In this document: positions 6,442 to 39,161 of the stretch, piece after piece
Layout: each line of letters starts with the position of its first letter
How positions within the stretch are numbered: position 1 is the stretch's first letter
Virus record (IMG/VR): IMGVR_UViG_3300025896_000059
Span: 1 to 40,362 of that record
Source of the DNA: a virus
Lineage: Duplodnaviria; Caudoviricetes
Strand: one strand, 5' to 3'
DNA length: 40,362 nucleotides
The notes under the pieces: model-generated
What the model saw: the letters and a program-made list of their open reading frames with translations, nothing else
Told to the model about the DNA's origin: nothing
Database searches by the model: none
Made by a program: the position numbers and the translations under genes

Positions 6442-6563
6442 TGATGACACATGAGTGGAACTGGAACATGTTCTGCATTGGCTTTGTTAAGTATAAGAAT
6501 CTTAAATGCTTTGAGATTTATATTGGCACACTTGCTATTGGTATTTGGTGGGGGCTTAAATGA
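6438..6563 (+). CDS. small hypothetical protein, 41 aa (not in ORF track)
   Basis: ATGA overlaps at both ends; MMMTHEWNWNMFCIGF... Confidence 0.55.
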   Translation: MMMTHEWNWNMFCIGFVKYKNLKCFEIYIGTLAIGIWWGLK

Positions 6564-7099
6564 TTATCGGATTGAGTGGCTATGCCCGCAGTGGTAAGGA
6601 CAGCACGGCTGAATTGTTATGTCTTAATTACGGATACCGTAGAGTATCTTTTGCTGACCCGATTCGTCATGCGTTGATGGTACTTAACCCTAGATTAGAT
6701 AGCATCACTCGTGTTGCTGAATATGTAGATGACTATGGCTGGGACATGGCTAAACAAAACCCTGAGGTACGCAGGTTAATGCAAGTGTTAGGTACTGAGG
6801 TAGGTCGCACCATGTTGGGTGATGATGTATGGATTAAGATGGCGCTTCGTGACTTAAGTCCTAACGATAGAGTTGTTATCTCTGATGTTCGTTATCCTAA
6901 TGAAGCAGATGCAATCAAGAAATTAAGTGGTTCGTTGTGGCGTATCAACAGACACAATCACAGTGCAGTTAATAGTCATAAGTCTGAGCATGCTATGGAT
7001 AACTACATGTTTAATCATGTTATCTATAATGATGGAACTCTTGATGACTTAAGTGATGAAGTGTTCATGCTTGCTAAGGAACTTGACTTAGATAAATAG
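6560..7099 (+). CDS. deoxynucleoside monophosphate kinase
   Basis: IIGLSGYARSGKD, FADPIR, RRLMQVLGTE, SDVRYPNE, HKSE. Confidence 0.92.
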   Translation: MIIGLSGYARSGKDSTAELLCLNYGYRRVSFADPIRHALMVLNPRLDSITRVAEYVDDYGWDMAKQNPEVRRLMQVLGTEVGRTMLGDDVWIKMALRDLSPNDRVVISDVRYPNEADAIKKLSGSLWRINRHNHSAVNSHKSEHAMDNYMFNHVIYNDGTLDDLSDEVFMLAKELDLDK

Positions 7100-7110
7100 T
7101 CTGGCTTAAT

Positions 7111-7160
7111 ACATAGAGAAACCCAGCGAGACAGGAGAGTATCACTGGGCTTTTCTATGT
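7111..7160. terminator. bidirectional terminator hairpin between convergent operons; loop contains GACAGGAGA / UCUCCUGUC
   Basis: 19-bp imperfect stem ACATAGAGAAACCCAGCGA / TCACTGGGCTTTTCTATGT. Confidence 0.75.
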
Positions 7161-7202
7161 ACACCAACCTCTATGCTTCCCCTTCACAGGGGCTGGTGTA
7201 CA
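7158..7202. other. second intergenic hairpin
   Basis: TGTACACCAACCTCT / AGGGGCTGGTGTACA stem with a 15-nt loop. Confidence 0.6.
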
Positions 7203-7214
7203 AGACAGACAGTA

Positions 7215-7556
7215 TCACCCAAGTTTAGGTTCTGTCAAAGCCCAACCTATTCTGTTGCGAATCTTGTGTCGCATAGGTGGTGTCGTCCCACCCCACACGC
7301 CGTACCTTTCATGGGCTAAGCCCCACTCAAGGCAAGCCATCATGACTGGGCACTCAATGCACATCTTCTCAAACATGCGCTCCTCGTCACGACTGAACAA
7401 CTCTTGTGCTGGGTAGAACACCTCGGTATCTATGCCCTTGCACACTGCCTTATCCCATAGCCGTTGGTTGTATCTTAAGACATAAGCAACTAGCCCTTTG
7501 CCGTGCCTATTCTTGGTACCTGTCTGACTGATTATTTTGTGGAACTGTGGCTTCAT
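7215..7556 (-). CDS. whiB: WhiB-family Fe-S transcription factor
   Basis: W..AVC...VFYP...CIECPV...CLEWG...YGVWGG. Confidence 0.93.
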   Translation of the reverse strand: MKPQFHKIISQTGTKNRHGKGLVAYVLRYNQRLWDKAVCKGIDTEVFYPAQELFSRDEERMFEKMCIECPVMMACLEWGLAHERYGVWGGTTPPMRHKIRNRIGWALTEPKLG

Positions 7557-7559
7557 GTC

Positions 7560-8003
7560 TTAATACCAACCCTTCGCTAAGTGATGCGCGTATGCCTTGC
7601 AGATTGCACCCTTGCCATAGTGCCTGTCAATGTATGCAAGCCCTGCATCTACCTGTCGGTAGCCGTTACTCGTGGGTTTAATCTTAAGTATCTTCCATGT
7701 GCGAGGCATGAGTTGGGCTATGCCCAGCGCATGACTTGACTTGTTCACTGCCTTTGGTCGCCAGTTAGATTCCTCAGTCCACAATTCATAGAGACATGCG
7801 TACTGTTCAAGGTCATCTTGCTTCATCAACTTGTCAATAGCATAGCGTTGGTAGTCGTTCTGATAGTAGGCAATCACCTTGCCATGTGGTGGTGACACGA
7901 ACTGCTGACCAGTTGGTGTCTTAAGTACTAAGATAGTTCCTAAGATAGTTGCTGTAACAATCCACAGTCTAGCCGATGGATGTATCTGTCTTAAGTTGAG
8001 CAT
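7560..8003 (-). CDS. membrane-anchored SLT-type lytic transglycosylase
   Basis: N-terminal TM; EESNW, ALGIAQ, YIDRHYG, GWY; SD GAGGAG before ATG 8003. Confidence 0.85.
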   Translation of the reverse strand: MLNLRQIHPSARLWIVTATILGTILVLKTPTGQQFVSPPHGKVIAYYQNDYQRYAIDKLMKQDDLEQYACLYELWTEESNWRPKAVNKSSHALGIAQLMPRTWKILKIKPTSNGYRQVDAGLAYIDRHYGKGAICKAYAHHLAKGWY

Positions 8004-8163
8004 CTCGTTTCTCCTCTGCTTGTTGGTCAAGGTATGTATCTATTGCTCGGTTGGCTTGTTCTCTCTGTCTTAATTCACAAGGCGTGCATCTCTCACTCAT
8101 GTAGTTTAATGTCTTAGGATTCTGCACCATGACACCGCAACTTTTGCACTCCATAAGTATCAT
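7969..8163 (-). CDS. small zinc-finger protein
   Basis: CKSC...CTPC. Confidence 0.65.
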   Translation of the reverse strand: MILMECKSCGVMVQNPKTLNYMSERCTPCELRQREQANRAIDTYLDQQAEEKRDAQLKTDTSIG

Positions 8164-8423
8164 GGCGTTACCTTCTCAGTGTGTGGTTCTAATGAGTCAA
8201 GGAAATGTCCAACACTCATGTCTCCGTCTGCCTCTATCTTATCTGCCCATGCTGGGGCACCAATCCACCTGCCTTCAAGGTCAAGCCACTGAATATCAAA
8301 GCCGTCATGGTCATCCCAATGTAGGATAACACGCACCTCCTGTCCTTCAAAGGTGATGTTCATATCCTTATCGTATGCAGTTTCTGTCTTAAGTAATGCA
8401 CCTACCTGTATCTTTGGAATCAT
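8160..8423 (-). CDS. hypothetical protein
   Basis: GACAGGAGA SD; coupled to neighbours. Confidence 0.75.
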   Translation of the reverse strand: MIPKIQVGALLKTETAYDKDMNITFEGQEVRVILHWDDHDGFDIQWLDLEGRWIGAPAWADKIEADGDMSVGHFLDSLEPHTEKVTP

Positions 8424-8569
8424 TTGTTTTCTCCTGTCTTTAGTTTGGTTTCGTACTTAATCATTATCTCGTGCCAGTAATCGAACCACTCGTTCGTAGT
8501 GCTGGCGTTGCGTTGCTCACGCGCTCGCTTGATTAGCGTGCGTGTGGCTTGCATCTCTTGTGAGTTCAT
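8420..8569 (-). CDS. hypothetical protein, 49 aa (not in ORF track)
   Basis: MNSQEMQATRTLIKRAREQ...KLKTGENK; ATGA overlap with the 8423 gene. Confidence 0.65.
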   Translation of the reverse strand: MNSQEMQATRTLIKRAREQRNASTTNEWFDYWHEIMIKYETKLKTGENK

Positions 8570-8572
8570 GTC

Positions 8573-8734
8573 TTAAGCCACAGTCGTAAGTGCTGGTGCT
8601 GTTTGACATAGAACTACATGGCTGTGCTTGCATGTGCATTGAGGCGCACGATTAACTTTCCGTCTCGTGGTCACCTCCATTGAGGTGTCGCATGAGGTGC
8701 ATACATACCAGTAACTAACCCATTGTGCGCTCAT
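8573..8734 (-). CDS. small zinc-ribbon protein
   Basis: MSAQW..YVCTSC...CTC; ATG 8734 directly follows the upstream stop. Confidence 0.65.
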   Translation of the reverse strand: MSAQWVSYWYVCTSCDTSMEVTTRRKVNRAPQCTCKHSHVVLCQTAPALTTVA

Positions 8735-8735
8735 G

Positions 8736-9026
8736 TTAGTTACCTTCTGTCTTAAGTACTGACATGAGTGACTTGAGGTGGTCAAGCGCCTGTTGCTTAC
8801 GCTTGTAGTTAGTACCTAGCATTTCGTTAGCCTTCTTAAGTGTGCTCCCATGTCGGGTCATCTTCATTCCTGTCTTAAGTTCTAACTCAATCCAACTGAT
8901 GAGTGAGATTAGAATGTATAAGTTCACACCTGACCCGCTTGCGCTAGTCATGTGCCCGTCCTCGTTGAATGACATGTTGGTAGCGCCATTGGTTAGTGCT
9001 TCTAGTGTTTCTTCTGGTAGTGCCAT
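8736..9026 (-). CDS. hypothetical protein
   Basis: GACAGGAGA SD. Confidence 0.75.
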   Translation of the reverse strand: MALPEETLEALTNGATNMSFNEDGHMTSASGSGVNLYILISLISWIELELKTGMKMTRHGSTLKKANEMLGTNYKRKQQALDHLKSLMSVLKTEGN

Positions 9027-9057
9027 TGTGTTTCTCCTGTCGTTAGTTGGTAGTTGT

Positions 9058-9113
9058 AGTTAATCGGTTTGGTTAGTTCATGTCAAGCATTTTGTGGTGT
9101 GATGTTCGTCACA
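9058..9113 (-). promoter_or_regulatory. leftward promoter candidate with CRP-type box
   Basis: TGTGA-tgttcg-TCACA at 9098-9113; TTGACA at 9086-9081; -10 element weak. Confidence 0.6.
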
Positions 9114-9275
9114 CTACGGGGCAGGGTATCCAGCAGGACATCCAACCTGTTCGACCAAGCATGATTCGGGTATATCCCATACACCTATTGCACTTGATAC
9201 TCCAATCATCGCGCTAAGTATTAAGACATAAATAAAGATTGCTCTGACTTGTTTGCCTCGGCGTGTGAGTTTCAT
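9114..9275 (-). CDS. small membrane protein
   Basis: MKLTRRGKQVR followed by a TM helix; ATG 9275. Confidence 0.7.
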   Translation of the reverse strand: MKLTRRGKQVRAIFIYVLILSAMIGVSSAIGVWDIPESCLVEQVGCPAGYPAP

Positions 9276-9508
9276 TTGTAATCCTTTCTGTGTTGGCATG
9301 TGGATAGGGGGATGAGACAATCACCGCAGATTGTGACAGTTACTTTCGGTCTTAAGGCCTCACTTAATAAGAGCAAGATGTTTGTGCGTGTGCTCATGGT
9401 TGCTCGGTAGATGTTGTTCTCATAGAGGTGATACTCGTTAGCAATATGGCGTGCTTCCCATAGGTTGCCTTCGGTGTCTGAGCCTTGTGCTATGGATTGT
9501 GTGGTCAC
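9272..9508 (-). CDS. hypothetical protein
   Basis: GTG 9508 overlaps the upstream stop; C-terminal CGDCL...C.H. Confidence 0.6.
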   Translation of the reverse strand: MTTQSIAQGSDTEGNLWEARHIANEYHLYENNIYRATMSTRTNILLLLSEALRPKVTVTICGDCLIPLSTCQHRKDYK

Positions 9509-10065
9509 GATGCCACCGCCATGACTGAGGGCAGGCTGGCCTTGAGTGCGTTGGTAATCTTCTGCATTTCCTCGACACTGAATCCACCTAGTGTGTTCCA
9601 AGATGAGCAGTGGTCGCCAGTAATCTGACTTAAGACAGTATAGAACTCTGCCTTGATTGGTTCTTCTTGCTTGGCTTGGTTGCGCTTGGCGATACGAACA
9701 AGGCGCTCGGCTCTGATGTCCTTAGTCCAGCGACCCTTACGCTTTTGGTGCATGTCTTTAATGATTGGCCAGTACTCGCCTCGAATATCCATAAGGCGAA
9801 AGTCTGTGCGTGGGCAGTTGGTATAAAGCCCGTCTGTCTTGTGAGTTGGGCACTCTTTACCAAAGGTTGAGCACTTGGTCATCCATATAACGCTTGCGCT
9901 TTTGTATGAAGTCTTAGGCTGTCCGTCTGATTCAAAGACTACATAGTGGCGATTGTATTCGTGATTTTTGTGTGTCTTAAACACTGAGTCTTGATAGGTT
10001 TCCATGCCGTTATTGCGTGAGGTTGCATAGTAAGCAACGCCCGCTCTGAGTTCTGCTTTCTTCAC
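9505..10065 (-). CDS. hypothetical protein
   Basis: GACAGGAGA SD before GTG; 186 aa. Confidence 0.75.
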   Translation of the reverse strand: MKKAELRAGVAYYATSRNNGMETYQDSVFKTHKNHEYNRHYVVFESDGQPKTSYKSASVIWMTKCSTFGKECPTHKTDGLYTNCPRTDFRLMDIRGEYWPIIKDMHQKRKGRWTKDIRAERLVRIAKRNQAKQEEPIKAEFYTVLSQITGDHCSSWNTLGGFSVEEMQKITNALKASLPSVMAVAS

Positions 10066-10104
10066 TTGCTTCTCCTGTCTTGTAGGTAACGGGATTGTTA
10101 CCAG

Positions 10105-10151
10105 TGCCTCAATGGTGGCATGAACACCGCGGTTTCTTCAACATTTGAGGC
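10105..10151 (-). ncRNA. tRNA-like mini-structure A (putative)
   Basis: GCCUCAA/UUGAGGC stem + A; GGUG-UUCAUGC-CACC arm. Confidence 0.35.
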
Positions 10152-10167
10152 TGTGATTTGCATCACA
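10152..10167. promoter_or_regulatory. CRP-type box TGTGA-tttgca-TCACA
   Basis: Perfect consensus, intergenic. Confidence 0.7.
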
Positions 10168-10182
10168 TGTTTTTATTCTGTC

Positions 10183-10347
10183 TTAAGCCACAACTTTCTG
10201 AACTCGCTTGAACTTTCTGATTCGGTCATGGTTCCTCTTAAGGTATCCTGAGAAATCTGCCTCATGTAGAAAGCCCTCAATTTCTGACCAATCATGACCA
10301 TTCACTGAGTAATAAATCTCAACATAGAAATGATTAAGTTGGGTCAT
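10183..10347 (-). CDS. hypothetical protein, 54 aa (not in ORF track)
   Basis: MTQLNHFYVEIYY...KVVA; start 3 nt after the upstream stop. Confidence 0.65.
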   Translation of the reverse strand: MTQLNHFYVEIYYSVNGHDWSEIEGFLHEADFSGYLKRNHDRIRKFKRVQKVVA

Positions 10348-10350
10348 GTC

Positions 10351-10662
10351 TTAAGCCTCGCTTTCTTTCGTGATGTAGTGGCGGGCGATTCGGTCAAAGG
10401 CACTAGACCCCCAGCCGTTGAGCATTTGGCTCATGATGTCAATCGTCACGCTTTCAACCTCGCCACTCTGTCTTAAGACATCAACTGCCTTGGCTATCTG
10501 TTCCGCCCAGCCTTCGCGCATTGTGTCGCTGATTGCGCTCATGCTTTCCTTCTTGGCGCGTACCATGTCAATGGTTTCAAAGTATGCTTCGCGGTCGTTA
10601 TCAACTACGAGGGTGAAATCATGGACGAATTGGTCAACGGCAAACGGTGTTTCTAGTGTCAT
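10351..10662 (-). CDS. hypothetical protein
   Basis: GACAGGAGA SD. Confidence 0.75.
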   Translation of the reverse strand: MTLETPFAVDQFVHDFTLVVDNDREAYFETIDMVRAKKESMSAISDTMREGWAEQIAKAVDVLRQSGEVESVTIDIMSQMLNGWGSSAFDRIARHYITKESEA

Positions 10663-10762
10663 TTTCTATCTCCTGTCTTAATACACAAGAAGAACGGTTC
10701 CCCTTGTGGTTTTGCTTGGTGTAATCATCCCACCGAATCGGGCAATTCCTTGCCATTTCCGA

Positions 10763-10778
10763 TGTGATGTTCATCACA
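10763..10778. promoter_or_regulatory. CRP-type box TGTGA-tgttca-TCACA
   Basis: Perfect consensus, intergenic. Confidence 0.7.
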
Positions 10779-10808
10779 CCTAACCCTCTACCTTAGGTTG
10801 AGAGTTCG

Positions 10809-10853
10809 TGCCCCCGTGAGTCGTGAACTCGCGCCGACTTATCGGGCGGGGGC
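10809..10853 (-). ncRNA. tRNA-like mini-structure B (putative)
   Basis: GCCCCCG/CGGGGGC stem + A; CCGA-UAAG-UCGG and GAG-UUCACGA-CUC arms. Confidence 0.35.
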
Positions 10854-10861
10854 TTTCTGTC

Positions 10862-11038
10862 TTAAGACAGTTTTGCTTTCTCCTTTTCCATCATGGCGCT
10901 AATCTTCACGATTGGAATAATGATTGCGCATTTCTCGGCTGGTGTGCCTAGGTCTGCTGCTAAATCATCATAAGCCTTGTCTAAAATCTCCTTGATTGTT
11001 TCCATGTCCTTGATTGTTAGTTTCATTCTCTGAGCCAT
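10862..11038 (-). CDS. hypothetical protein, 58 aa (not in ORF track)
   Basis: MAQRMKLTIKDMETIKEIL...; GACAGGAGA SD. Confidence 0.7.
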   Translation of the reverse strand: MAQRMKLTIKDMETIKEILDKAYDDLAADLGTPAEKCAIIIPIVKISAMMEKEKAKLS

Positions 11039-11059
11039 TTTTTTTCTCCTGTCTTAAGT

Positions 11060-11093
11060 AAGGGAGGGGGCGGGCTTTCCGCCCCTCTCCTTT
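11060..11093 (-). terminator. GC-rich intergenic hairpin (weak terminator or processing site)
   Basis: GGGAGGGGGCGG / CCGCCCCTCTCC. Confidence 0.5.
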
Positions 11094-11101
11094 CTTCTGT
11101 C

Positions 11102-11740
11102 TTAAGCGCTGAACGCTGTCTGACATAGGGCGCAGATTACGCCCGCTTCAATCACACCGCGAGAGGCGCGGATTACCTGCTCACAACCACACACCGCCTT
11201 GAGGAGGTTGGTGTTTCTGCCCTTAGGCTTGGCGCTTCCCTCGCCTGTTGCTGTTAGTTCTAGCGCCTTGGTGAGGATTCCTAGCGCCTTGCTCCAACGC
11301 TTGGCACCGAACTCGGTTAGCGATGTTGAGGCGTGTCCCTTGCCCTTGATTTCTTCGGTCTTAAGCCCTAACGCCTCCGCTTGAGCCTTGAACTTAGCGT
11401 TGTGATATTGGTTGCTTGAGCAATCTTCGATTCCATTCATGTGATTCATTGAATGTGCAACCTCATGCAAGAGAGTGCTCAAGAGTTCCTCGCCTGTTGT
11501 GAAATGCTCAAGATTGAAAGCGATTTCATTGAAAGATTCTGCCCCGTTTTGCCATGGTGTGTACGGGGTGAAATGTCCCTTTCTGCCCTTGAGGTCACGA
11601 GTCACGAGGAGAGTGGCGCGGGGTGCGCCTGTTTCGGTCTTAATCAACTCGTGAGCCTGTTCTAGCGCCTTGGTGAGAGTTGAGAGTGCTTCGGCCTTGG
11701 TTGCCTTGCCTGTTGCCTTGGTTGCTGTTGTTGCTGTCAT
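11102..11740 (-). CDS. SprT-like zinc metallopeptidase-domain protein
   Basis: LLHEVAH (HExxH), YHN..F, C-terminal CGC...CALC; ATG 11740 follows GACAGGAGA. Confidence 0.85.
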   Translation of the reverse strand: MTATTATKATGKATKAEALSTLTKALEQAHELIKTETGAPRATLLVTRDLKGRKGHFTPYTPWQNGAESFNEIAFNLEHFTTGEELLSTLLHEVAHSMNHMNGIEDCSSNQYHNAKFKAQAEALGLKTEEIKGKGHASTSLTEFGAKRWSKALGILTKALELTATGEGSAKPKGRNTNLLKAVCGCEQVIRASRGVIEAGVICALCQTAFSA

Positions 11741-11790
11741 TTGAATCATCTCCTGTCATGTCGTAAGTCCGATTTGAACTCACAAGGAGA

Positions 11791-11862
11791 TTTATACGCG
11801 CCTCCCTTGAGGCATGTCAAACACCGAACACGCTCAAATTGCCAAATGTGATGCAATTCACA
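11791..11862 (-). promoter_or_regulatory. main early leftward promoter with upstream CRP-type box
   Basis: TTGACA (11820-11815), 18 nt, TATAAA (11796-11791); TGTGA-tgcaat-TCACA at 11847-11862. Confidence 0.7.
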
Positions 11863-30921: not shown

Positions 30922-31832
30922 GTACTCTTGAACAGATGACTGACCGTATTGACACGCTTCTTCACGGTTACACAATGAATACAGAATCAACCACTTGGCT
31001 TACCGCTGCTGCAACAACATCAGACACTAGCATTTCAGTTAATGATTCAAGCGTAGCCAGCCGTGGCTTTATCCAAATTGGTGATGAATTGATGTATGTC
31101 AATAGCACTAACAACATTGACAATGTTCTTAACCTTGCCCCATGGGGGCGTGGACAGCGTGGCTCTGTTGCTGTAGCACATGACAACTTATCTAAGGTTA
31201 TTGCTTCTCCAGTATTCCCACGCTATGAAATCAAGAAGGCTATCAACGACACAATCAACTCTGTGTATCCACAAGTCTTTGCTATTGGTCAGTATCAGTT
31301 CAACTACATTGCTGCTCGTACAACCTATGATATTCCTGATGAAGTGCAGAACATCCTTAGTGTTACTCACTCAGTCATTGGTCCATCTAAAGAATGGCTA
31401 CCAGTTCGTGCATGGCAGATTGACCGTACCGCTAACCCAACAGCCTTTGGCGATGGTACTAACTTTGGACACAGCCTTAGCGTGTATTCACCTATCGTTC
31501 CAGGTCGTCCTGTGAATGTGGCTTTTGCTAAGCGCCCGTCACTATTTGATATTAACTCAACAGCATCACAAGAAATGTCTACTGTCACTGGCCTGCCATC
31601 GTATGCCGAAGATGTGCTTGTCTATGGAGCAGCCTTCCGTATGGTTTCATTCCTTGACCCAGCACGCTTGGGTCCACTATCTGCAGAAGCAGATGTTCTT
31701 GACAATCAGCGTGGACCAAGCAGCGGTGCTAACGCAGCACGCTTCTTGTTCAATGTTTACAACACTCGTCTAAACGAAGTGGCGGAGAACATGCGCCGTC
31801 AATTCCCCGTTCGTTCACACTATCAGAGATAA
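30918..31832 (+). CDS. putative head-tail adaptor / tail tubular protein
   Basis: Position; IGDELM...RG.RGS.A.AH beta insert; AINDTI helix. Confidence 0.6.
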   Translation: MSTLEQMTDRIDTLLHGYTMNTESTTWLTAAATTSDTSISVNDSSVASRGFIQIGDELMYVNSTNNIDNVLNLAPWGRGQRGSVAVAHDNLSKVIASPVFPRYEIKKAINDTINSVYPQVFAIGQYQFNYIAARTTYDIPDEVQNILSVTHSVIGPSKEWLPVRAWQIDRTANPTAFGDGTNFGHSLSVYSPIVPGRPVNVAFAKRPSLFDINSTASQEMSTVTGLPSYAEDVLVYGAAFRMVSFLDPARLGPLSAEADVLDNQRGPSSGANAARFLFNVYNTRLNEVAENMRRQFPVRSHYQR

Positions 31833-37616: not shown

Positions 37617-39161
37617 GTGAAACTTCCCCGTTTACTTGCAATCTGGTTCCTAGTATTTGGAACTTCTATTTTCTTTTTACCTCAGGCTAACGCTGAGAAC
37701 ACAGGCATAATAACTGTAACTTGTGCTAACGAGGCTGGCGAAGCCAGAACTTTTAATGTTGGCTGGGATACAACAACTCAATTCTTTGAAAACAAGGGCA
37801 ACATTGCTGCATTGTTTTGTTCTATTGGAACACAAGGGCAATGGAAAACTTTTGTATCTACTACTGCACCTGAAAGTACTTGGTATTACAACGGTGTGGC
37901 AACTACACCTGCTCCTGCTCCTTCACCTTCCAGCGAGCCAACTGCAACTCCGAGTCCATCATCCTCACCTGAGCCGAGTCCAACTCCGACTGTAGAACCA
38001 ACTGTCGAGCCTTCTCCTGCACCAACTGTGACTCCAACACCGCAACCTTCTGCAACAAATACTCCTGAGAGTAGTGCATCTCCTACTCCTGTTCCTTCTT
38101 CTTCACCAACAACGGTAGAAAATTTGCCTTCCCCGTTGCCTGAATCCAGCCCGCAACCCACCCCGACAGAAACCCCAACAGTACAACCCACTCCATTGCC
38201 TACTCCAATTCCTGTAGATACCAGTACAGCAACGCCAGTACTGCCAGTGCCACCGCTAACCCCAGAGCCACAGCCTACTCCTGTTCCTGTCGAACCAACA
38301 CCCACACCAGTAGTCCCACCAACAGTGGAACCAACACCAACCCCACAACCTGAGCCAACTCCGCAACCACAACCTACACCTTTGCCTGAACCCGTAGCAG
38401 TTCAACCTGACCCTGTGGACCTACCACCTGATGTAGCCCCACTCCCAGAGCCAAGTCCAGAACCTCAGCCTCAACCTGAGCCAGAACCCCAGCCTGTACC
38501 CGCAGAAGAACCTCCAGTAAATGAACCTGCTCCCGAACCTTTGCCAGTAGAAGAAGCGCCTCCTGCCCCTGCAGAAGAACCTCCTGCCGAGGAAGAACCT
38601 CCTGTTGCAATTCCTGACCCTGAGCCTGTTCCTGTTGAGGAACCACCTGCTCCTGAGCCAGAGGAAGTTCCTGCTCCTCCAACTCCTGAACCTGCCCCTG
38701 AACCTGCACCGCTACCTCCTGTAGATAAACCTGAACCACCTGTGGTGGCAACAGTTAATTCTACACCAGAAGAACGAGCAGCAGTGGCAGAAACGCTGAT
38801 TGAAGCAGCACAAGGTGAGCCAGTTACAGCGCAAGCAATCCAAGAAGCAGGTCTTACTTATGAAGATTTGCCACCGCAAACACCAATTGAAGTTCGTCAA
38901 GATGAGAACGGCAATGAGGTTGTTATCACTGCAGAGGTAGCAGCAGCCCTTGTTGTACTTGAAAACCCTGCTGCACTTATCTCTGCAATTTTCTCTGACC
39001 CAGGCCAAGCGCTACTTGCATTAGCAAGCATCGGTGCTGACATGTCAGAAGAAGAAAGAACAGAGTCAGAAAAAATTATTATCGCATCAGTCATTGCTGG
39101 GCAGGCTGCAGTTAATGCAGCAGGCATGGCAGGAGCAGCAGCCTATAGGAGAAAACCATGA
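37617..39161 (+). CDS. secreted Pro/Thr/Glu-rich protein
   Basis: Signal peptide ending ANA; long PT/PE linker; hydrophobic Ala-rich C-terminus then RRKP. Confidence 0.75.
   Translation: MKLPRLLAIWFLVFGTSIFFLPQANAENTGIITVTCANEAGEARTFNVGWDTTTQFFENKGNIAALFCSIGTQGQWKTFVSTTAPESTWYYNGVATTPAPAPSPSSEPTATPSPSSSPEPSPTPTVEPTVEPSPAPTVTPTPQPSATNTPESSASPTPVPSSSPTTVENLPSPLPESSPQPTPTETPTVQPTPLPTPIPVDTSTATPVLPVPPLTPEPQPTPVPVEPTPTPVVPPTVEPTPTPQPEPTPQPQPTPLPEPVAVQPDPVDLPPDVAPLPEPSPEPQPQPEPEPQPVPAEEPPVNEPAPEPLPVEEAPPAPAEEPPAEEEPPVAIPDPEPVPVEEPPAPEPEEVPAPPTPEPAPEPAPLPPVDKPEPPVVATVNSTPEERAAVAETLIEAAQGEPVTAQAIQEAGLTYEDLPPQTPIEVRQDENGNEVVITAEVAAALVVLENPAALISAIFSDPGQALLALASIGADMSEEERTESEKIIIASVIAGQAAVNAAGMAGAAAYRRKP

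Follow-up and report, generated by a model that had tools for sequence, protein, structure and literature searches.

The viral record IMGVR_UViG_3300025896_000059 (Duplodnaviria; Caudoviricetes) is a stretch of 40,362 nt, analyzed here as a whole 40.4-kb record and called the window. It encodes a terminase, portal, capsid, primase, helicase, sigma factor, dNMP kinase, and WhiB-like regulator. A block of leftward genes (7215-11740) converges on rightward replication genes at 7100-7215; promoter boxes of the host type and the small, unknown nature of its genes suggest that the block is expressed early. Six of these leftward genes share a 9-nt word, GACAGGAGA, at their ribosome-binding sites (here, the tag), and a hairpin at the point of convergence displays the complementary sequence in its loop. 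We describe this tag-and-loop pair, its behavior across related phages, and a small RNA that would act through it. The genes and tags lie as follows.

6560 to 7099, plus strand: dNMP kinase, the last rightward gene, which runs toward the hairpin
7215 to 7556, minus strand: WhiB-like regulator (whiB), the last leftward gene
8430 to 8438, minus strand: tag 1, 6 nt before ATG 8423 of an 87-amino-acid (aa) open reading frame (ORF)
9033 to 9041, minus strand: tag 2, 6 nt before ATG 9026 of a 96-aa ORF, phrog_19182
10071 to 10079, minus strand: tag 3, 5 nt before GTG 10065 of a 186-aa ORF
10669 to 10677, minus strand: tag 4, 6 nt before ATG 10662 of a 103-aa ORF
11045 to 11053, minus strand: tag 5, 6 nt before ATG 11038 of a 58-aa ORF
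11749 to 11757, minus strand: tag 6, 8 nt before ATG 11740 of the gene for an SprT-like protein, the first leftward gene
11791 to 11820, minus strand: TTGACA-18-TATAAA, a predicted early promoter preceding the leftward block, called from the window sequence alone

The tag occurs in seven exact copies in the window versus 0.29 expected, and none of 100 shuffled sequences reached this number (maximum of 2); chance origin was rejected on this count. An earlier note on this DNA had claimed that six leftward genes carry the word 5 to 8 nt before their start codons and that its sole other copy has the opposite orientation. An exact search confirmed both: six copies lie on the minus strand before leftward starts, and the seventh is reversed, on the plus strand at 7130-7138, inside a 12-nt hairpin loop. 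For the tag at 11749, the start must be ATG 11740 rather than the first ATG of that ORF. The whiB, transglycosylase, and sigma factor genes lack the tag. That the tag is an ordinary host Shine-Dalgarno word was rejected only weakly: GACAGGAG and GGGAGAGA precede ATG just 7 to 23 and 11 to 23 times, respectively, per 5 to 10 Mb in five actinobacterial genomes, but a comparison word, GAAAGGAG, was equally rare there (3 to 23 copies), and none of the five is the known host.

The convergence point itself carries the following features, of which hairpin 1 and the -10 box go beyond the earlier note, as does an octamer, TTAAGACA, that overlaps two tags.

7109 to 7162, minus strand: hairpin 2, with a covarying stem, a probable bidirectional terminator separating the dNMP kinase gene from whiB
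7130 to 7141, minus strand: 12-nt loop of hairpin 2, UACUCUCCUGUC, antisense to the tag
7159 to 7201, minus strand: hairpin 1, the variable 5' hairpin of the predicted RNA (z = -3.2 on the minus strand)
7209 to 7214, minus strand: TACTGT, a predicted -10 box immediately following the whiB stop codon (start predicted at ~7203)
7233 to 7238, minus strand: TTGACA, a weak -35 candidate inside whiB, 18 nt upstream of the -10 box at a spacing not conserved in relatives

Hairpin 2 was predicted to fold at -29.7 kcal/mol on the minus strand versus -24.2 kcal/mol on the plus strand, in agreement with the preference for the minus strand that had been noted earlier. Two extra pairs are predicted inside the window loop (3.4 kcal/mol to open) and are absent in most relatives. 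Hairpin 2 may terminate transcription, as suggested by the convergence of the genes and by its flanking T-rich tails, one on each side; a simple terminator scan that covers loops of 3 to 8 nt does not list it. When 54 candidate starts (one gene entered twice) were scored for pairing with the loop, the six tagged starts ranked top (-15.2 to -15.7 kcal/mol; next best, -12.0 kcal/mol). The tagged leaders are predicted to be mostly open, with an opening cost of 0.7 to 1.8 kcal/mol for five and 4.2 kcal/mol for the sixth. The match does extend to 10 nt for four targets (8430, 10071, 10669, and 11045), as had been claimed, but the tenth base pairs with the closing pair of the stem.

The loop is conserved on a stem that changes. 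Among 80 loci fetched via the kinase gene, near-copies included, 73 kept the loop GACAGGAGAG(A/T)A; five had a different loop, and two contigs ended too early. Sense copies of the tag in these loci closely preceded a start codon in 278 of 279 cases. In 20 rows picked for diversity, the stem of hairpin 2 had changes on both sides in 11 of its 21 pairs, and the loop columns were invariant except one. This stem covariation exceeded all 500 shuffles and all slid controls; the control ignores relatedness, and the result is read as support, not as a probability. Across 18 distinct upper stems, taken on the leftward strand, we counted 132 Watson-Crick pairs, 12 G-U pairs, and no A-C pairs, and 26 of 27 hairpins fold better on the pyrimidine strand. 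Given this 12:0 wobble bias, the leftward (pyrimidine) strand is the working strand. Where genes were inserted after the kinase, the hairpin remains beside whiB. At two loci (L065 and L075), a leftward gene inserted between the kinase and the hairpin has its own tag-like start and a plain terminator.

Loop and tag also change together. One group of relatives, found by position before its starts were viewed, has a loop with TTCCAGTCC and early starts with GACTGGA. With two further scans added, 193 whiB-junction loci comprised 153 with the A loop and 40 with the T loop. Of the loci whose early region spanned 3 kb or more, those with the A loop (n = 103) had 661 GACAGGA and 12 GACTGGA starts, and those with the T loop (n = 32) had 1 and 69, respectively. 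Tagged ORFs numbered 644 and fell into 70 families, suggesting that the tag marks a gene class rather than one gene and persists while the genes turn over. Beyond this group, a fixed rule applied to 34 genomes identified a shared start word in 28, and 22 of these display the antisense of that word at the tip of a strong hairpin (4.25 expected from shuffled words). In the cluster BF phages FlowerPower, Immanuel3, WRightOn, and Manuel, 8 to 9 sense copies of GGGAGAGA precede leftward genes, and one antisense copy each lies in a strong hairpin loop inside the leftward block. The tag GGAGAGGT of genome G022 is matched by a CCACCUCUCC loop; G003, G007, and G008 have a loop shifted to CCUCCUGUC, and the starts of G003 and G007 are shifted to a GGAGG type. 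A loop-versus-genome permutation (2/5040) was not used as proof, since several hairpins were picked after the tag was known. Neither tag nor hairpin was found in G004, G006, G009, and G010, which occupy two places on the terminase tree. Two further sequences (G024 and L128) have, besides the usual hairpin, a second strong one with a loop antisense to CAAGGGAG, ~8.3 to 8.4 kb upstream of the terminase gene.

Tag variants of this kind could be exclusion groups, if the RNA paired with the tags of incoming related phages and silenced their early genes. Consistent with such superinfection exclusion, an identical tag occurs in phages only 41 to 44% identical in terminase, and a hairpin RNA could be stable and abundant. 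Escape by loss of the tag would be expected, yet most phages keep their tags, and the four that lost them also lack the hairpin; we regard exclusion as distinctly unlikely.

The placement of the hairpin differs among lineages. The lineage of the Planktophila phages E7 and F5 (these two and eight further genomes) has it on the other strand from the early block, where it heads the replication genes and shows an identical or nearly identical loop. In E7 it lies near 31660, ~6 kb away from the early block, and in both E7 and F5 it is therefore not on the early transcript. In the BF phages, it lies within the leftward block (near 38094 in Manuel) and has no U tail; the BF and E7 homologues have no T-rich tail like that in the window. 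The hairpin thus need be neither a terminator nor part of the early transcript, and the earlier description of it as the end of that transcript need not hold across lineages. The common element appears to be the loop on a transcribed strand, not a terminator, which favors action in trans and disfavors a decoy on the purine strand. As separate observations, a small upstream hairpin in BF phages (L111, 38040 to 38130; L113; L114; L549) competes with the base of the main hairpin beside the ribosome-binding site of the next gene and could be a local switch. The E7 hairpin is immediately preceded (L112, 31500 to 31640) by an extended AT-rich segment containing TATA repeats, which could be a replication origin or a strong promoter.

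These layouts bear on two alternatives. The loop could act in cis, at the 3' end of a long leftward transcript that folds onto tagged sites of the same molecule, as in the icaR 3' untranslated region (3'-UTR) (PMC3868564). The window and the BF phages would suit this arrangement, having the hairpin on the same strand as most tags and downstream of them. Cis action is nevertheless unlikely: a single loop would face six to ten tags, the hairpin is on the opposite strand and far from the early block in E7, F5, and the eight further genomes, and a conserved -10 box (below) suggests a free RNA. The second alternative is that the tag is a site bound or cut by a protein, either a translational repressor or a nuclease like T4 RegB, which cuts GGAG in early T4 mRNAs (PMC1702504), with the purine-strand loop as a decoy or an extra site. 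The rightward transcript of the window would end in a hairpin with GGA in its loop, and some phages have the tag without the hairpin. However, all 12 wobble pairs and the folding of 26 of the 27 hairpins favor the pyrimidine strand, and in BF and E7-type phages no transcript of the purine strand is evident. Nor was such a protein identified among the leftward ORFs, though most of these have no family. A protein site is therefore very unlikely, and the plus-strand GGA decoy offered in the earlier note is disfavored by the wobble bias and by the lineages without an evident purine-strand transcript.

If the loop acts as a free RNA, its predicted form in the window is a minus-strand transcript of 95 nt (7203 to 7110) with two hairpins. 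Hairpin 1 is present in 39 of 51 distinct elements and appears dispensable in some lineages; the 12 elements without it would give an RNA of ~50 nt. The loop of hairpin 1 is often purine rich on the RNA strand (GGGGAAG), and an unrelated hairpin takes the place of hairpin 1 in some lineages. TAnnnT is the -10 consensus, and a TAnnnT box lies 4 to 9 nt ahead of the first hairpin in 47 of the 51 elements (shuffles: mean, 9.0; maximum, 18). Because this box is so widely conserved, a dedicated promoter that overlaps the whiB stop codon is a more likely origin for the RNA than 3'-UTR processing. The earlier proposal that a 3'-UTR-derived loop is antisense to the shared tag thus stands as to the antisense relation, with the loop conserved, covarying with the tag, and free of unrelated copies, and is less likely as to the origin of the RNA. 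A long-spacer promoter activated by WhiB was dropped, as the -35 spacing is not conserved. A search of the window against Rfam (families including RsaE, RNAIII, cuckoo, and c4) returned no matches at the gathering score, with only subthreshold chance matches over 7000 to 7300.

Taken together, sequence comparison establishes the tags, the hairpin and its working strand, a stem that covaries beneath an unchanging loop, and the paired variation of loop and tag among lineages, and we conclude that these form a real, conserved, and covarying system. We propose that a trans-acting small RNA probably represses the tagged early genes as a group. The RNA would be transcribed from the host-type -10 box at the whiB stop, and its hairpin loop would pair in trans over 9 to 10 bases with the tag that covers the Shine-Dalgarno site of each of the six genes. 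The loop-leader duplex would cover the GGAG core, outcompete the ribosome, and stop initiation, with repression as the presumed outcome rather than another effect. Tag bases outside GGAG may lend specificity for phage leaders. In the case of RsaE, an unpaired C-rich motif blocks initiation independently of Hfq (PMC2790875). If the RNA accumulated later than its targets, it would serve as an early-to-later switch that spares the untagged whiB and sigma factor genes. We give such a delayed shut-off, or timer, about an even chance; it fits all three layouts, in each of which most of the targets precede the RNA. Both repression and a timer had been put forward in the earlier note, and both are still read from sequence.

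Several observations weigh against repression in trans by such an RNA. The RNA, the loop-tag duplex, and the repression are all predictions from sequence. Net pairing energies after opening costs are only about -8 to -11.5 kcal/mol, and in many elements the whiB stop codon overlaps the -10 box and contributes some of its matching bases, which weakens the -10 test. The A/T swap is one change on the kinase tree; with many near-copies among the loci, independent covariation events number about five, not hundreds. The fixed rule fails in 6 of 28 genomes, and for GC-rich genomes its null rate climbs to 0.5. The GC-rich hairpins of G021, G026, G028, G031, and G035 were chosen after the tag was known. 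Perfect 8-nt loop matches to a genome's own early starts are few in some cases (none in G035, one each in G014 and G005, and two each in G003 and G026), and G027 and G029 have a shared tag and no clear hairpin. Finally, three rightward (middle) genes are tagged in E7 and F5, one of them directly behind the hairpin, so that the tagged class is not purely early there.

This last arrangement is relevant to the idea that pairing protects or activates, by shielding tagged leaders from a host nuclease or aiding their translation. The gene directly behind the hairpin is tagged in the E7 lineage, G021, and G022, which would be odd for a pure repressor. However, the duplex would cover the GGAG core needed by the ribosome, and known cases of such geometry repress, making a protective or activating role highly improbable.

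The early region also contains other repeats. The octamer TTAAGACA has 37 copies in the window versus 1.95 expected, 22 of them within 7475 to 11105 and most densely in the leftward block. These copies lie mostly sense to transcription, inside and between ORFs, and the full palindrome TGTCTTAAGACA occurs twice (10469 and 10858). TTAAGACA was found in six of seven genomes of the window lineage and in G002, G011, and G012; GTTTAGAC replaces it in G014. Because of this replacement and its absence from several genomes that keep tag and hairpin, TTAAGACA appears to be a different system, and its copies are likely docking sites for a DNA-binding protein. We considered whether the tag might itself be a DNA-level site, such as a stoperator-like operator, or a by-product of TTAAGACA, with the loop copy incidental. 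Two tags do overlap TTAAGACA, and every tag copy in the window is sense to the local transcript. On the other hand, the spacing of tags to start codons is fixed, and in BF and E7-type phages the copy in the loop runs antisense to local transcription. In addition, TTAAGACA is missing from the early region of three genomes that carry both tag and hairpin (E7, G007, and G008) and has only two copies in that of G001, and on these genomes the by-product explanation was rejected. The DNA-site reading is thereby largely refuted and extremely improbable.

Perfect TGTGA-N6-TCACA boxes, which we take to resemble CRP-family sites, occur five times in the window (506, 9098, 10152, 10763, and 11847) versus 0.11 expected. 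Four lie just upstream of leftward promoter candidates, and the early region of 23 of 34 genomes has such boxes; early transcription may read the host cyclic AMP state. The early region of G023 carries a tandem array of ~20 copies of a short GGAATGCCGCT-type unit.

By terminase, the closest cultured phages are Streptomyces cluster BF podoviruses (48 to 49%), followed by LanE43-AprE7 and LanE43-AprF5 (44%), which match the Planktophila phages E7 and F5 of PMC10202952. The layout of the window resembles that of the Beephvirinae (Streptomyces cluster BF), and the window sits on a separate branch of the terminase tree; it appears to be a relative of this subfamily rather than a member. In alignments, the WhiB-like protein matched only distant soil actinobacterial genes, which pins down no host for the window. 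Its presence and the kinship with E7 and F5 (44% terminase identity) suggest an actinobacterial host, probably acI.

Phage early-gene shut-off is known mainly via proteins, and an RNA that addresses a gene class through a coevolving tag would, if true, add a new layer to lytic control. Cultured phages that grow on harmless laboratory hosts carry the element (Manuel on Streptomyces lividans, Immanuel3 on S. griseus, and Anaya on Mycobacterium smegmatis), as do the first cultured acI phages, and it is testable now. Its natural tag and loop variants are candidate orthogonal riboregulators for Actinobacteria.

Among phage RNAs, the c4 antisense RNA of P1 and P7 has exposed loops that pair in trans with a ribosome-binding region. 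Unlike the window system, c4 has one target operon, belongs to temperate phages, and has no shared tag over a gene class. A literature search found no paper on a phage RNA that targets a tag common to early genes, with most subscription journals outside its coverage. The loop words are absent from six supplementary files of a catalogue of 10,006 candidate viral RNAs (PMC10690425), of which files 1, 2, and 4 fell outside the search and may list the hairpin without a function; the excerpt of PMC8244752 held nothing relevant. RsaE and related Staphylococcus aureus small RNAs with C-rich motifs likewise set an unpaired pyrimidine motif against several ribosome-binding sites and block initiation (PMC2790875). 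The hairpin shares with such trans-acting anti-Shine-Dalgarno RNAs a conserved structure that exposes a pyrimidine-rich loop and an evolutionarily kept complementarity to the ribosome-binding sites of several genes. RsaE-type RNAs differ in being host RNAs that use a generic UCCC seed on existing sites, whereas here a dedicated tag extends beyond the Shine-Dalgarno core and changes with the loop. The S. aureus icaR 3'-UTR also blocks initiation through an anti-Shine-Dalgarno motif at a transcript 3' end (PMC3868564), but it is one self-acting mRNA, in contrast to one loop facing many genes, possibly from the opposite strand. T4 RegB similarly shuts off a class of early phage mRNAs via leader GGAG (PMC1702504); it is a protein nuclease with no antisense copy, as opposed to a base-pairing RNA.

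The closest parallel to the tag is the start-associated sequence (SAS) of cluster K mycobacteriophages, described by Pope and colleagues, who left open whether RNA or protein binds it (PMC3203893). A similar word is reported from Microbacterium cluster EF (PMC7302621). Like the tag, the SAS is an overconserved word that contains a Shine-Dalgarno sequence and precedes nonstructural genes, and in four K1 phages one lone copy is reversed and unconnected to any start (PMC3203893); the window likewise combines an asymmetric word a few nucleotides before starts with a lone reversed copy. The two differ in that the window word is a 9-mer distinct from the 13-nt SAS consensus, and the SAS phages are unrelated temperate siphoviruses. 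An extended form of the SAS has 17-bp inverted repeats upstream; the palindromes observed in the window are the TGTGA-N6-TCACA boxes near four leftward promoter candidates. The reversed copy of Anaya, at 59870 and flanked by genes 96 and 97, supplies the loop of a hairpin predicted on the transcribed strand; its case is weaker, because the stabler fold is that of the other strand (-34 versus -28 kcal/mol). The fetched right arms of TM4 (10 SAS copies) and Pixie (18) yielded no reversed copy, which also counts against extending repression by a loop RNA to these phages. Across many phages, a private ribosome-binding tag may address a gene class that one complementary loop RNA controls, as an orthogonal translation switch respelled in each lineage, with the start-associated sequences of actinobacteriophages as the address half and the lone reversed copy seen in 2011 as the regulator; we hold this generalization to be quite possible, if just short of an even bet. 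It suggests a concrete, testable function for the SAS, described in 2011 and still called unknown in role in 2024 (PMC11373665).

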